Shown piece by piece: positions 45,001 through 51,000 of a stretch of 64,000 bases of DNA. The position numbers are program-made. The stretch is from an uncultured Planctomycetota bacterium (GTDB taxonomy: Bacteria; Planctomycetota; Planctomycetia; Isosphaerales; Isosphaeraceae). The stretch spans positions 544,001-608,000 of the forward strand of contig CAWJTV010000041.1 in the NCBI GenBank assembly GCA_963845755.1, in the 5' to 3' direction. Each line of letters begins with the position of its first letter. Position 1 is the stretch's first letter.

Positions 45001-48000
45001 GTTCTCGCCGAGGGCATTGGTCTTGCTAGCCCAGCCTGGTCCGTGAGCATAAACCACCAAACAACTGGCTTCATGATGAGCAGCCATGGCCAGAAATCGA
45101 TCACGGCGGCGCTGCAACTCGACGGCTACACCGAATACTGTCCCGATTGTTGCAACCACAGCCATCCACCACCGAGTCGTCATCCGGGGCAGTCGCATGA
45201 CCCGAACCTCCGGGCTGACAGACTGGCCAGTCTGATCTCTAGTCCAGGATTTATACCGCAGACTTGACGTAAGTCCTTTCTCGACGTCTCAGATTCCGTT
45301 GATGGGAGGGGGATATTCACCGGAGGGGTAGGAAGGGGCATTGCTAATCCCCCAGGCAAAATACATAGGATGACGAAGGCGTTGTTTCCCATATTGCCCA
45401 TCCTGCGTTAATGTTAAGCAATCCCCTTTGGCAGGCTTTGTTACTGCTTCAGCGGAGACGGCACGACAAATTAGTCGAGGAGGTGATCACGCATCTGAAC
45501 CTTCCCGCTTGGCTTCGGGATAGGACCTCTTGCACGGCTTCGCTGGGATCTGGTGCCCATGGCCACAAGATACATACCCCCCAGCCAAAAACCGAGAAAG
45601 CTGCCGGCCGCCCCGCCCAAGAACACGAATACGGCAGCAATGAACGCCAGAATAAATAGGGACCCTACGTGATCGATATCATTTGGGTTGTTACTCGGCA
45701 AGAGGAGGATCACCAGGAAACAGATAAGGCCGGCTATAGCCCCGATCACCAAGCCATAGACCGTCGGTCGAAGTAGTCGCATGATGATGCGGTCCTGTTT
45801 TCTCGAATGCTTCCGGACGACCCGATTTCGATGTGCATGGACTCCGAAGGGATTGACGAGGATGCGCATGGCCACGACCTCGACCGCTTCCATCGTCCGC
45901 CGTGAGGAGGTCGCATGCCCCCTTCCTGTGAAGGCTCGACTCTAGTCCAGGCATTGCACCGCAGCCTTGACGTAAGTCCTTTCTCGACGTCCCTGATTTC
46001 GTCGATAGGAGGGGGATATTCACTGTTTACACATCGGACACTTGTTAGCCATTCCTCTATCGAGGTTGTCAGACGTTCACAGCACGGCCCAGGGCCTTTC
46101 TCAAGGATACCGCGGCGCAGGTTCGTTGCACCAGCGTCAAACCCTCGCGAGGTGTGAGGAATGGAGAATCCGCACTCTTCACAACACTCGGACCAGGATA
46201 GAAGACCAACTGGTCATGATGAATCGACAAGGGGAACGTCGGGGACAGGCGATGAGAGGCGCCGGCGGGAGTCGAACCCGCTTCCGCGGTTTTGCAGACC
46301 GCTGCCCGGCCGTCAGGCTCCGGCGCCCTGAGTGCTTCGACCCTCCCTCGGAGGGCATGTCCTCGCCAGGAATCGAACCTGGTCTCCGACCTTCGCAAAG
46401 TCGTGTGCGCGTCCGTCACACTCCGAGGACAACGATCGGAACAGGACCGTTGACGAGTCCCCCACCCGGGAATCGAACCCGGCCTTGCGGCTTCGAAGAC
46501 CGCCGTGCGTCCGCCACACCCGCAGGGAAACAGCCGAGTGCCCTTGCCAGGAGTCGAACCTGGTCTTCGACCTTCGGAGGGTCGCGTGCCGTCCGTCACA
46601 CGCCAAGGGCGCAATCGAAGCCGACGGCCGGGCTCGAACCGGCATGAACCTGCTTACAAGGCAGGGGCCTCACCGTTCGGCCACGTCGGCAGATAAGAGC
46701 AGGGGCGCAAGGATTTGAACCCTGTCCGCGAGCTTTGGAAACTCGCTGCTCTCCCAGGAGCACACCCCTATCATTCGATCGATTGAGCGAGGGTATTCGG
46801 CGGGAGTTGAACCCGGCGCCTCGAGATTCACAGTCTCGCATGCTTCCGCTACACCACGAACACCATCAGCAAGTCCGGCCCGAGGTTCACCCGGGCCGAG
46901 GCGGAAGGGGCGGGAGTCGAACCCGCAAGGCTCATCGCTCGTCCGCTTTCCAAGCGGGTCCCGTCGCCGGTCGGGTGGCCCTTCCGTATCAATCAGTTTC
47001 AGTGGGCGATGCAGGGGTCGAACCTGCGGCCTCCAGCGTGTCATGCTGGCGCTCTGGCCGGCTGAGCTAACCGCCCGGATGATCCATTACCCCGACCAGG
47101 ACTCGAACCCGAAACTCCTCGTTAGGACCGAGGCGTGATCCTCCCTTTCACCATCGGGGCCAGGAACAAGCGGAAGGCAAGGGATTCGAACCCTCATCCC
47201 CTCTCGAGGAACCGTTTTAGCAGGACGGCTCGGCAAACCGTATCCGACTACCTTCCGTTCGAGTGGACCCACCGGGAGTCGAACCCGGGTCTCCGGCCTG
47301 CCGAGCCGGTGTCGTTCCGCTGGACGATGGGCCCTTCAAACTTCCCAACCTGCGTTCAACCGAGTGGACCGCCGGGGAGTCGAACCCCGATTCCCGGCGT
47401 GCGATACCGGTGTCGTCCCGTTGGACCAGCAGCCCGTTTGCGAGAAGGTCCGCCCGAGAATCGAACTCGGTCCCCCTCCTTACCATGGAGGTGTGCTGCC
47501 GGAACACCTGCAGACCGGACGGCGGAGAGTCGTCCCGGCAGGACTCGAACCTGCGCTAACCTGTGTGTAAGACAGGCGTCTTGGCCGCTAGACGACGGGA
47601 CGAATTGCGGTCAGTAGCACGGGTGGGATTCGAACCCACAGACACCAGGCCCTCGACCTGGTCGCGATGCCAGTTAGCGTACCGTGCCAGGAACACCGAC
47701 AGTTGCGGGTCGGGGAGTCGAACCTCCGTCTCCGAGCGTATGAAACTCGGCCGAGCACCGGCCCACCCGCAGTCCCAGGCCCCGGTATCGAGCCGGGCGG
47801 ATCGGCCTCATGAAAGCCAACCGGGCACCTGCCTCGCCTGGGAAACTCGCAGTATCAGTCCAACCGATCAATCAGTCGCCAGGGGGAGATTCGAACTCCC
47901 ACGCCTCGAGGGCACGTGCTTCTGAGGCCCGCGCGTCTACCAGTTCCGCCACCCGGCGCGTCGTCCAGTACAGTAGTCCGTGCGGGAATCGAACCCGCCT

Positions 48001-51000
48001 CTTCAGCTTGAGGGGCTGATATCCTGAGCCGATAGACGAACGGACCTTGAATAAGAACCTCCAGTGGGTAGTGAAGGAGTTGAACCTTCCGCCTTCCGCC
48101 TCACAACTTGAGGGCAACGGTTTTACAGACCGCCGTGAGGAACACCACCCGAGAAAAACCATCCGCGAGTAGCACGGGTGGGAGTCGAACCCACAGAATC
48201 CCCGGGTTTGAGCCGGGTCGCTTTGCCGGTTTGCGTACCGTGCCATCTCTCCTACTCCAGCGCCCCCGGCGGGATTCGAACCCGCGACCTCCACTGTGAC
48301 AGAGTGGCGAGCTCTCCAGGCTGCTCCACGAAGGCGTGATCGAATGGCTCAGGAGGGAGTCGAACCCTCAGCATCCCTCGTTCTAAGCGAGAGTGGTCTG
48401 CCGATTGCCTACCGAGCCGAGAACTCTTGCACCGAGAACCCATTACCCAGGGTGGGAGTCGAACCCACAGGCGCCCGGGTTTAAGCCGGGCCGCTCAGCC
48501 GTTGGCGTACCTGGGTCCTCTCTCCGAGGCGGAAGCCGTGGGACTCGAACCCACAAGCGGCCTGCGCCGCCACCTGCTTTCAAGACAGGCCCCTGATCCA
48601 GCCGGTTGGCTTCCGTGAGGGCATTCCACGCGAGTTCCGGGGGCTGGAATCGAACCAGCGGCCTCCGCGTTCAGAGCGCGGCGTCACTACCACCAGCAAC
48701 TGCCCCGGATTCGGGAAGGAGGAATTCGAACCCCCACCGCCTGATTCAAAGTCAGGGAGCCTACCACTTAGCCGATTCCCGAGAGCGCCCCGCGGGAGTC
48801 GAACCCGCCTTTCGGACCTGGGAAGCCCGCCCTGACCGCTCGGCCAGGGACGCATCAACCGTCGCTTCGAGTGCGGGATCGGGGAGTCGAACCCCGATCG
48901 CCTGGTTGGAAGCCAGGAATCTTGCCATTGGACCAATCCCGCGGCCTGCCAGCGGAAGGAGAGGGAGTCGAACCCTCAAGGCTCATCGCTCGTCCGGATT
49001 CGAGCCGGGTGCCGTCGCCAATCGGCTTGCCCTTCCCCAGGAACAGCTCCGGCGGCAGGAATCGAACCTGCGTCCCCCCGGTTAACAGCCGGGCGCTCGT
49101 ACCAGCACGAACTCCACCGGAATCATCGCGTCAGACAGTCGGGATGGCCGGATTTGAACCGGCGATTTCCTGCTCCCAAGGCAGGCGGATTAGCCAGGCT
49201 TTCCTACATCCCGAGTCGCCTCGTTTTCCGACAAGTGCCCAGCGGGAGTCGAACCCGCACGTCCGCCTTGGCAAAGCGGTAGGCTTCCGCTACATCATGG
49301 GCACGATCGCCGTCCCCGAATTGTCAAGGAACCGAGAGCACCGGGTGGGACTCGAACCCACGTCGCCGCCTTACGAGAGCGGAGTCTTCGCCGCTGGACG
49401 ACCAGTGCCTGCATCACGATGGGACCGGAGGGGCTCGAACCCTCACCGAACCGGTTAAGAGCCGGACGTTCTGCCGCTAGAACTTCAGTCCCGACTGGTA
49501 GATGAGTAGCCCGTGTGGGAATCGAACCCACCTCTCCGCCTTGAAAGGGCGGTATCCTGCGCCGATAGACGAACGAGCCATCTTCACGAGTGGGCCGGGG
49601 GGCGCTCGAATCCCCGTCTGCCGGGCTTCAACCGGCCGCTAGACCGTCTCAGCTACCGACCCATTCCGCGATCCCAACAAAAAGGCCCGGTGTCTTCGTC
49701 ACACCGGGCCTGAGACTCCACGCGAGGGATGTCCGAGACCGGGTGTCACGTCTGCAAGGGATAGAACCGGAGCGGGTTCGCCGACAGGTCGGCGGATCGC
49801 TTCGTTTCTTGACAACCCAGGGTGTAACGCGGACTCCCGGCGAACATGGACAACCTCGATGTTACGGGTGTCTCAGGCCGACTGGACTCGGGGCCAACCT
49901 CACGGCTCGCCCGTCGTCTTGTACCCTTACAGACGCATCACCCCGGGAGGATGTTCGCGCGATTTCGAAGAGATTATTGGTGGAGCCATTTCCGATCCCG
50001 ATTCGCTGCATTACGGCCCGCCATCGAGCGTTCGCCGGGACCATGAACGATACGATCTCTTCGAGGCCGAGCACCAGGGGCGTATCCGTTCTCTCGCCGC
50101 AAGTCCAAATCGCTCAAGCCCTCGGGAGATGTCGAGATGGGCGAGGGGCCTCGAAAATCATTGGACCTGACGTGTTCCGTGCCGGTACGTCGCATAGAGG
50201 GGAGATGGGTGACTGAGCGGGACAGGCAAGCCGTCTGCCACACTTTACAGGAGAAGCTCATGCAGACCATGACCACGGAACTCGAGCGGTTGATCGGCAA
50301 GGTCATTGGGGACCTGGGCGGCACGGCCAACGCGGCCCTCGTTATCGTCGGCGACCGGCTCGGGTTATATCGGACCCTCGCCGAGATCGGCCCCACTACC
50401 TCGCACGAACTGGCCCAGCAGACTGGCACGCACGAGCGATATATCCGCGAGTGGCTTGCCGCCCAGGCGGCTTCCGACTATGTCGACTACGACCCGGCCA
50501 CCAAGCGGTTCAGCATGTCCCGCGAGCAAGCCATGCTCTTTGCCGATGAGAACAGTCCGGTGTACATGGCCGGAGGCTTCTTCGCCGCGGCGGCGGCCAT
50601 CAACGACGAACGACACCTGGCGGAGGCGTTCCGGTCGGGACGTGGGATCGCATGGAGCGATCACCACGACTGCCTGTTCTGCGGCACGGAGAAGTTCTTC
50701 CGCCCGTCCTATGCCGGAAACCTCCTCCAGTCGTGGATCCCGTCGCTGGGGGACATGCACGCGAGGCTCCAGGCCGGGGGAACCGTGGCCGATCTCGGCT
50801 GTGGGCACGGTTGCTCCACCGTCCTCATGGCGAAGGCCTATCCGGCCTCCACGTTCGTCGGCTTCGATAGCCACATGCCGTCGATCGAGCGCGCCCGCGA
50901 GACGGCGGCCGCGCAGGAACTCCCCAACGCACGCTTCGAGGTCGCGACGGCGCAAAACTTCACACGGATTGATGGAGACGGCTACGACCTGGTCGCGATC

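Follow-up and report, generated by a model that had tools for sequence, protein, structure and literature searches.

Attenuators such as those of trp, his and pheA share a common plan: a short ORF in the leader, antiterminator and terminator hairpins that exclude each other, a U tract, and the position of the ribosome as the input. Spare tRNA genes, on the other hand, may be grouped in L-arrays, as in the trn operon of Anabaena sp. PCC 7120 (Santamaria-Gomez 2021, PMC8421152), which is induced by ribosome-targeting antibiotics (PMC8421152) and controlled by the repressor TrcR (PMC10272220), acting on promoter repeats. The L-array paper also lists arrays of Planctomycetes, including a 15-gene Paludisphaera array (PMC8421152). 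Irregular tRNAs are known from two further settings: type I tRNA-Leu, with a short variable loop, is charged in Streptomyces (PMC6614811) and occurs in a mycobacterial cluster (PMC6582537), whereas the 8/4 and 9/3 allo-tRNAs (Mukai 2017, PMC5389517) lie in polycistrons and are missed by standard finders.

The locus described here, in a 64,000-nt window of contig C41 from an uncultured planctomycete of the Isosphaeraceae, is a tRNA L-array, a spare-tRNA operon of a known type:

46230..49980, minus strand: whole cassette of promoter, leader and tRNA array, bounded by homology to three related genomes (G006, G011, G062)
46256..49662, minus strand: tRNA L-array, 36 genes called by ARAGORN and two more (ARAGORN, Rfam)
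about 47773..47842, minus strand: second tRNA-like gene with a CAU anticodon, its D arm very small (ARAGORN at relaxed score)

Homology of the cassette to these genomes starts at contig position 593980 and ends at 590230-590251, and the flanks differ. The 36 minus-strand tRNAs reported at 46256-49662 by the first-pass annotation are real by ARAGORN, 26 of them exceeding the Rfam tRNA gathering score. The two widest gaps, of 103 and 122 nt, each hold one further tRNA-like gene, with anticodons CAU and GUA, giving a total of 38 genes with intergenic gaps of 0-36 nt; the CAU gene has homologues at 14 other loci. Like its Anabaena counterpart, the array is long, one-stranded and non-periodic, and belongs to a phylum, and here to a genome, with scattered housekeeping tRNAs. 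Its genes are supernumerary to the housekeeping set: 31 of the 36 array anticodons have a scattered counterpart (44 scattered tRNAs passing the filter; assembly 88% complete), and the divergence noted earlier amounts to 58-77% identity to the best scattered tRNA. The genome has three tRNA clusters, all with the promoter-leader unit; the two on contig C20 (431840-432244 and 450492-451106) are indeed of the same array type, and the order Pro-Lys-Ile-Ile is present in G006 as described.

The suspicion that the supplement of an array paper might list an Isosphaeraceae array was justified (PMC8421152). An array match at E<=1e-10 was again obtained in 93 of 120 other Isosphaeraceae genomes, a count that probably includes single-tRNA matches, with 76 of 120 at 1e-22. 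Conservation across genera of the family stands, but not its restriction to the family: the array is class-wide, being found in 123 of 301 genomes of Planctomycetia, far above the "some dispersed species" of the L-array paper (PMC8421152). Nor is the claim that the C41 copy was inherited and not imported supported by the identity comparison. Outside the tRNAs, its cassette shares 81-83% identity with arrays of another genus (leuS 75-77%), whereas against a same-genus genome (leuS 87%) these parts reach 64% on 225 of 895 nt, and that genome carries an array at a locus syntenic with C20:431840. Thus, the C41 array looks horizontally acquired, as is typical of L-arrays, and the inherited copy would be the truncated C20 cluster. 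A phage or plasmid origin was set aside, as 42 plasmid records and 385 phage records yielded nothing beyond single-tRNA matches. An association with HNH genes, known from the Anabaena L-array, is seen in relatives: such genes lie inside five arrays (Pfam HNH in L037, L041, L042 and L053), with none inside or adjoining the window array. A TROVE/Ro60 gene follows one of the arrays.

The leucine tRNAs of the array are as follows:

48444..48516, minus strand: short-arm tRNA-Leu(UAA), 73 nt, 5-nt loop, A14, A15:U48, A73
48345..48418, minus strand: short-arm tRNA-Leu(UAG), 74 nt, 6-nt loop, A14 and A73, without A15:U48
48169..48244, minus strand: short-arm tRNA-Leu(CAA), 76 nt, 6-nt loop, A15:U48, A20a, A73
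47614..47688, minus strand: short-arm tRNA-Leu(GAG), 75 nt, 5-nt loop, A15:U48, A20a, A73, C33
47875..47958, minus strand: long-arm tRNA-Leu(CAG), 84 nt

The first-pass annotation had recognized this division into four short-loop genes with A73 and one long-arm gene, but its premise that every bacterial tRNA-Leu has the long arm is contradicted by the published type I molecules (PMC6614811, PMC6582537) and by the Anabaena trn operon, all four Leu tRNAs of which are short-armed, with anticodons identical to those of the window array. The short Leu tRNAs, with their stemless variable loops of at least 5 nt and U8-A14, are hence a precedented exception and not new; by themselves they would be a modest addition to it. 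Streptomyces coelicolor tRNA-Leu(CAA) (Fan 2019, PMC6614811) and Mycobacterium mucogenicum tRNA-Leu(TAG) (PMC6582537) likewise have a 5-6 nt loop, U8-A14 and one LeuRS in the genome, 5 nt being the shortest variable loop that is well charged (PMC6614811); each of these is a single case, whereas the window array has four short isoacceptors, most with A15:U48. Among 126 short Leu genes A14 is kept in 126, A73 in 123 and A15:U48 in 98, and the anticodon-stem changes quoted for related arrays are present. The UAG to CAG switch also exists, though not in one lineage only (19 CAG against 16 UAG in that slot among the 126 genes). These patterns support the view that the array and its short Leu tRNAs are conserved and structurally selected. 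The latter would be tRNA-Leu of class II descent and are most likely substrates of the LeuRS, which is single-copy in this genome. This enzyme has a longer leucine-specific domain and lacks the Leu-Gly pair before KMSKS that the Streptomyces LeuRS needs (PMC6614811), so that leucylation is not assured; the earlier point that E. coli LeuRS dispenses with the long arm is only partly right, as it did not charge a natural type I tRNA-Leu. Nearest-neighbour identities of 45-69% lend no support to a single origin of the short Leu tRNAs of planctomycetes, Anabaena and mycobacteria, and a PDB comparison of LeuRS had no bearing on type I charging.

A more unusual architecture, absent from the first-pass annotation, is seen in one gene:

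48065..48150, minus strand: tRNA-Tyr(GUA)-like gene with no D-hairpin and with a pseudoknot (covariation in 54 sequences)

Here the partner of nucleotides 11-16 is a strand lying within the variable loop, and the resulting helix is crossed by a 3-bp variable stem, while G1-C72 and A73 are kept. Across the 54 sequences the 6-bp helix is 99.7% paired, with three pairs changed on both sides, and the 3-bp helix is paired throughout (100%), one of its pairs showing 24 two-sided changes. Like the allo-tRNAs, this is an irregular tRNA in a polycistron overlooked by tRNA finders; unlike them (PMC5389517), it has a normal 7/5 acceptor branch (acceptor stem of 7 bp, T stem of 4-5 bp, and neither the 8/4 nor the 9/3 form) together with two crossing helices. 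The words "pseudoknot" and "Planctomyc" are absent from the main text of PMC5389517, and our literature search found no published report of a pseudoknotted tRNA-Tyr without a D-hairpin. The odd Tyr gene occurs at 23 of 41 loci and an ordinary one at 9, the two never together (0 of 41). The pseudoknotted gene is probably the tRNA-Tyr of the array. It would present a natural test of rewired tRNA topology with identity kept.

Upstream of the first tRNA lies a leader, also missing from the earlier annotation, with the following elements:

49931..49960, minus strand: bipartite promoter-like motif GAAC-N17-CGTCT (spacer conservation, genome matches)
49854..49857, minus strand: Shine-Dalgarno-like GAGG of the leader ORF
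49746..49847, minus strand: leader ORF of 33 codons, with 16 amino acids, 28 codon types and a UGA stop
49779..49794, minus strand: small hairpin inside the leader ORF, possibly a pause hairpin
49736..49748, minus strand: antiterminator strand that starts with the stop codon and pairs with the 5' strand of the terminator
49676..49711, minus strand: intrinsic-terminator hairpin (11 bp) with U tract, lying 20 nt upstream of tRNA-Phe, the first tRNA

The promoter-like motif, which is ECF-like, has a spacer of 17 nt in 98 of 116 leaders and of 16 nt in the other 18; exact matches in the genome number five at N17 spacing and 0-2 at other spacings. Transcription would start near 49925. The ORF was recognized in a first set of 49 leader candidates picked without reference to any ORF: TGA is present in 44, all open for at least 30 codons, and an ATG or GTG 29-45 codons upstream is in frame in 42 of the 44, the counts for the two other frames being 5 and 1 (two of the five candidates lacking TGA are second hairpins of the same locus). 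A scan of genome_contigs with the motif alone gave 80 titled loci, 73 of them labelled Planctomycetota; among their 74 matches a tRNA lies within 450 nt in 67, the promoter is found in 55, and an ATG is in frame in 57, against 1 and 2 in the other frames. In an enlarged set of 119 leaders, drawn from related genomes and hence non-independent, the ORF is 33 codons long in 45 and 32 codons long in 19, the Shine-Dalgarno-like 4-mer occurs in 65 (against 56 of 357 control windows), and a strict pause-hairpin motif is present in 35, in 29 of them 10 codons before the stop. Conservation of frame, start and length thus points to a translated ORF. Its peptide has no NCBIfam match and shows no purifying selection in close pairs (210 synonymous against 602 non-synonymous codon differences). 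The leader has no Rfam riboswitch or T-box match near the gathering score.

The terminator is 93.6% paired, with two-sided changes at 6 of 11 pairs (0 of 500 shuffles as high), and 110 of 119 leaders have 6-9 T in 10 nt in the U tract. As the hairpin is often 7-35 nt before the first tRNA, there is no space for a second promoter. The stop codon is fixed, across families, at the start of the terminator-complementary strand, 34-46 nt upstream of the terminator. The antiterminator, with a local fold of -23.5 kcal/mol, is paired in 89.6% of cells (43 leaders) against 22-39% in slid controls; its covariation is weak (two pairs, a count reached by 153 of 500 shuffles), and its one freely varying pair has no A-C mismatch in 119 leaders. 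The terminator is the favoured fold at equilibrium, whatever the state of the ribosome (mean P 0.85-0.95), the antiterminator being the stronger hairpin in just 37 of 119 leaders, so the switch must be kinetic. In a nascent-RNA model a ribosome at least four codons upstream of the stop lets the antiterminator form (P>0.5) in 65-101 of 119 leaders, and one stalled in the last three codons does so in 0-6; the antiterminator value of zero with the ribosome at the stop follows from the construction of the model. With the stop masked, the 5' strand of the terminator still pairs upstream (mean P 0.63). Values for the leader in this window are erratic, 0-0.8. An anti-antiterminator formed by the 5' segment, seen in the fold, was discarded: that segment consists of the promoter spacer and -10 motif and is probably untranscribed.

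At the sequence level, the promoter-like motif, the ORF of about 33 codons, the stop-antiterminator overlap and the terminator are conserved across Planctomycetia, and we consider it likely that the locus is an L-array under ribosome-coupled transcription attenuation, switched on when translation falters. An alternative-sigma promoter would fire; a ribosome keeping pace would reach the UGA and cover the antiterminator strand, letting the terminator fold and leaving the array silent. A ribosome slowed or stalled at least four codons before the stop (by an antibiotic, tRNA cleavage or shortage of any amino acid), or never loaded, would let the antiterminator form first and the polymerase enter the array, the long transcript of which would be cut into tRNAs needing CCA addition. 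This leader has a leader ORF and a U tract in common with the trp, his and pheA attenuators, and would also share the exclusive hairpins and the ribosome input; here, however, tRNA genes and not amino-acid enzymes or synthetases would be controlled, the stop codon itself opens the antiterminator strand, and none of the leaders examined carries a stretch of control codons for a single amino acid. Lacking such a stretch and being rich in rare codons, the leader would respond to decoding speed in general. Its amino-acid variety averages 15.4 distinct residues, against 14.7 in shuffles.

A functional small peptide upstream of a leaky terminator, with tRNAs made by constant low read-through, regulation by sigma alone and the "antiterminator" a conserved by-product, would account for the dominance of the terminator at equilibrium, the recurrent C-terminal (Y/H)-P-L-R motif, and the split array pieces with a promoter and no leader. 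We regard it as improbable, given a peptide body free of selection and of any family match, and a stop fixed where the terminator-complementary strand begins. The same C-terminus (Arg at -2, Leu at -3 and Pro at -4 in 111, 84 and 69 of 119 leaders, from mixed synonymous codons) and the invariant UGA-C context might instead signal a specific arrest peptide or ligand and not a sensor of decoding speed in general, the ribosome dwelling at the stop (OFF) or arresting in response to a single class of drug or metabolite. This too is very unlikely, as in the model a ribosome stalled that late, within three codons of the end, keeps the antiterminator hidden and the last five codons show no synonymous excess in close pairs (34 synonymous, 86 non-synonymous); it would be compatible with ribosome-coupled attenuation as a refinement.

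The tRNAs themselves, including the short Leu and pseudoknotted Tyr, could serve mainly as decoys or as substrates of RNA repair or nuclease defence and not in decoding. U8 is absent in 13 of 45 array tRNAs against 1 of 44 scattered ones, the TROVE/Ro60 and HNH neighbours would fit such a role, E. coli LeuRS left a natural type I tRNA-Leu uncharged, and in Anabaena cleavage is seen for operon tRNAs only (PMC8421152). Against this, which makes the proposal unlikely in our view, stand the retained Leu identity elements, the mutual exclusion of odd and ordinary Tyr, and the aminoacylation of 23 of 26 Anabaena operon tRNAs, which means that its four short Leu tRNAs cannot all be uncharged. In RNA datasets the 20 listed runs hold 7-15% of words; contigs from four metatranscriptome runs span the arrays, spacers and terminator of relatives, but one crosses the predicted start site, DNA may be present, and contigs give no levels, so they were set aside as expression support.

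Sensing of translational stress by a tRNA array has so far been worked out solely in cyanobacteria, via a repressor; the ECF-like promoter, leader ORF and terminator found here have no trace in the Anabaena, Mycolicibacterium and Methylibium loci, which lack the leader motifs. A class-conserved leader-peptide attenuator would be a second, self-contained answer, widening attenuation from amino-acid operons to tRNA genes; our literature search found no published case on a tRNA array. We hold more tentatively, slightly short of an even call, that Planctomycetia as a class keep a set of tRNAs for emergencies, controlled by an attenuator that responds to translation speed in general, and that this set includes a working tRNA-Tyr whose D-stem is a variable-loop pseudoknot. 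If so, a cellular tRNA operon would be gated directly by ribosome progress and would supply a charged, ribosome-used non-cloverleaf tRNA.

Several extensions gave little. Matching of leader AUA codons to tRNA-Ile(UAU) showed no clear link (6, 3, 9 and 10 loci; 13 not scored), and scans of viral_contigs found one locus without tRNAs for the attenuator pattern and one without a neighbouring tRNA for the Tyr pattern. A translation-repair regulon was rejected: the top three of 23 promoter-matrix matches are the tRNA clusters (a partly circular result, the training set having included them), no promoter motif was seen before rtcB, and a loose pattern over 301 genomes of the phylum was uninformative, with control counts of the same order. 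The twelve regions behind lower matches have no clear theme besides HNH and a 16S rRNA gene. Separately, an HNH homologue on contig C12 bears the promoter motif.

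ARAGORN recovers 36 tRNA genes on the minus strand, as in the first-pass annotation, and two further genes fill the large gaps between them, giving a total of 38 genes with intergenic gaps of 0-36 nt. The array is preceded by a compact leader:

46256-49662 (-): tRNA array, 36 ARAGORN genes
about 47773-47842 (-): second CAU tRNA, in one large gap
48065-48150 (-): GUA tRNA-like gene, in the other large gap
49960-49931 (-): bipartite promoter-like motif GAAC-N17-CGTCT, upstream of tRNA-Phe
49847-49746 (-): leader ORF of 33 codons, GAGG upstream, ending in UGA
beginning at the UGA (-): antiterminator strand, complementary to the 5' side of the terminator
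ending 20 nt before tRNA-Phe (-): terminator hairpin, 11 bp plus U tract

The leader control element and the topology of the GUA gene are apparently undescribed, both are class-wide, and both are cheap to test. By its consensus the bipartite motif is a putative ECF-type promoter.

Conservation of the leader was assessed in two ways. Among 49 candidates chosen by promoter, hairpin and downstream tRNA, a TGA picked by best complementarity is present in 44, all with at least 30 open codons, and 42 of the 44 have a start 29-45 codons upstream (versus 5 and 1 when the other two frames are read). Scanning genome_contigs with the two hairpins alone yielded at least 117 loci, 80 of them titled; 73 of these 80 belong to Planctomycetota and give 74 matches. 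Of these matches, 67 lie within 450 nt of a tRNA, 55 carry the promoter and 57 have an ATG in frame (1 and 2 in the other frames). The unit occurs in one of the seven matches from other phyla, and the 37 untitled loci show the tRNA in 27 (again within 450 nt), the promoter in 31 and the in-frame ATG in 25. In the pooled 119 leaders with both promoter and start, the ORF spans 28-55 codons (mode 33) and the peptide ends in (Y/H)-P-L-R-x, its codons varying synonymously; purifying selection on the peptide body was looked for and none was found. Rare codons make up 16% of leader ORFs versus 6% of long ORFs. Covariation is strong in the terminator and weak in the antiterminator, though the latter is conserved.

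This architecture quite probably places the array under ribosome-coupled attenuation, in which a ribosome at the UGA would cover the antiterminator strand and let the terminator form, while a slowed ribosome would allow readthrough. Equilibrium folding favours the terminator in every ribosome state; nascent-RNA folding gives the antiterminator in 65-101 of the 119 leaders when the ribosome is at least four codons upstream, and in 67 of 119 without a ribosome, competing pairings being common as well. The switch, if real, would be kinetic; kinetic control is usual among attenuators. Unlike this element, the Anabaena trn operon is under repressor control (PMC10272220), and the leader motifs are absent from the Anabaena array locus. 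Our literature search, which reached few subscription papers, listed none on tRNA-gene attenuation. Metatranscriptome contigs from four studies span relatives' arrays; such contigs cannot prove transcription or its level, and they are given no weight here. Elsewhere in the genome, the fourth-strongest promoter match (C20:720438 (-), L088) is followed by a short hairpin-bearing region in which no Rfam match was found, and a weaker one (C27:59235 (-), L308) precedes a 16S rRNA gene by ~440 nt.

The GUA gene retains G1-C72, its anticodon and A73. It lacks the D-hairpin; positions 11-16 form a helix with a segment inside the variable loop, and this helix is crossed by a 3-bp stem. A pattern imposing neither helix recovered 54 metagenome loci. 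Covariation was scored on 54 distinct sequences (42 of 43 distinct metagenome sequences, one long variant being excluded, and 12 genome sequences). Pairing reaches 99.7% in the 6-bp helix, where three pairs change on both sides, and 100% in the 3-bp helix, where a single pair accounts for 24 two-sided changes; kinship inflates these counts. Slid controls are 41-65% paired. A set of 26 genome sequences gives the same picture. Among 41 array loci, 23 carry the pseudoknotted form, nine a more ordinary tRNA-Tyr, none both and nine neither; this mutual exclusivity fits a predicted role as a working tRNA-Tyr. Our literature searches found no such fold, nor did passages of PMC5389517; those of PMC8450103 and PMC12360207 hold nothing bearing on it.

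Array tRNAs share 58-77% identity with their nearest scattered tRNA, and 26 of the 36 exceed the Rfam tRNA gathering score. Of the 45 array genes compared (nine on C20 and the 36 that ARAGORN finds here), 13 lack U8, against 1 of 44 scattered tRNAs, 13 odd scattered calls being excluded. Many of the array's Arg, Cys, Ser, Asn, Thr and Gln tRNAs lack U8, and several have C33 (window 46256-46610, 46900-46985, 47170-47256, 48528-48614, 48952-49121). The assembly has no scattered counterpart of the array tRNA-Arg(GCG). A tandem pair of CAU-anticodon tRNAs (window 47702-47842 (-)), in which U8 is absent and the D arms are very small, is kept in at least 14 related loci; possible identities are Met, fMet or Ile2.

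The four short Leu tRNAs noted previously (GAG, CAA, UAG, UAA) indeed have 5-6-nt variable loops and A73, and the CAG gene is long-armed. Short forms account for 126 of 165 parsed Leu genes, with A14 in 126, A73 in 123 and A15:U48 in 98, which are leucine determinants in E. coli (PMC9976931). That paper states the long arm to be universal except in animal mitochondria; the first-pass expectation of a long arm in every bacterial tRNA-Leu is contradicted by short tRNA-Leu from Anabaena, Streptomyces and a cluster whose tRNA-Leu(TAG) has a short loop (PMC6582537). All four Leu genes of the Anabaena operon are short, with anticodons identical to the short set here, and 23 of its 26 tRNAs are aminoacylated (PMC8421152), which means that one or more of the four must be charged. 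A tRNA-Leu with a 5-nt loop is charged by Streptomyces LeuRS and not by that of E. coli (PMC6614811); the single LeuRS of our genome lacks the Streptomyces Leu-Gly pair before KMSKS. The short Leu tRNAs are probably leucylated. The L-array paper (PMC8421152) names Planctomycetes and lists a 15-gene Paludisphaera array; PMC4758250 names the phylum as well. Because short tRNA-Leu and Planctomycetes arrays are thus published, the short-Leu array as first stated is of a known kind: a known L-array type with Leu tRNAs of a known type.

Array matches at E<=1e-5 occur in 117 of 120 family genomes; the earlier figure of 93 at 1e-10 agrees with a hand count, but only 76 match at 1e-22, the weaker matches being single-tRNA-sized. 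Across the class, 123 of 301 sampled genomes (ours counted) match at 1e-22, covering 13 of 22 families and 44 of 73 genomes within Isosphaeraceae. Since matches are class-wide and gene order is alike, the array type is old in Planctomycetia. The earlier view of an inherited array is not supported for the C41 cassette (window 46230-49980 (-)), which is nearest to other genera, against leuS: leuS is 87% identical to same-genus G046 and 75-79% to the relatives G006, G011 and G062, whereas cassette non-tRNA identity is 81%, 83% and 68% to the latter three; to G046 it is 64%, across no more than 225 of the 895 nt. The cassette edges are the limit of homology to G006, G011 and G062. The C20:431840 cluster has 85% non-tRNA identity to G046, with flanks 83-85% identical, and is syntenic with full arrays of G046 and G069 (C20:431500-432309, L086). 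By these identity comparisons the C41 copy is not simply inherited; our reading is that C41 would represent intergeneric transfer in either direction and C20 a truncated vertical copy. The methyltransferase gene adjoining the promoter (window 50137-51324) is 88% identical to a G011 gene, exceeding the G011 background, which suggests that the neighbourhood may also have been acquired. Plasmid and phage collections gave single-tRNA matches only and no array.

Both C20 clusters, L086 and L087 (C20:449961-451108), retain the whole unit of promoter, 33-codon leader and two hairpins, upholding their assignment to the same array type. A contig titled Candidatus Entotheonella (L192) carries the full Planctomycetia-type promoter, leader and array, through misbinning or transfer. 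Among 114 proteins scanned, four related arrays contain HNH genes, and one array is directly followed by a TROVE/Ro60 gene (L042:13285-15081); a stand-alone homolog of these HNH genes in our genome (C12:108743-109348, L301) has the array promoter motif upstream. Immediately downstream of the array, an 84-nt direct repeat (window 45237-45320 and 45940-46023, 88% identical) brackets an ORF of 140 aa. The rtcB match of this genome (C36:468220-469528, L243 and L244) is split between two segments that are open in different frames, reflecting a frameshift or assembly error.
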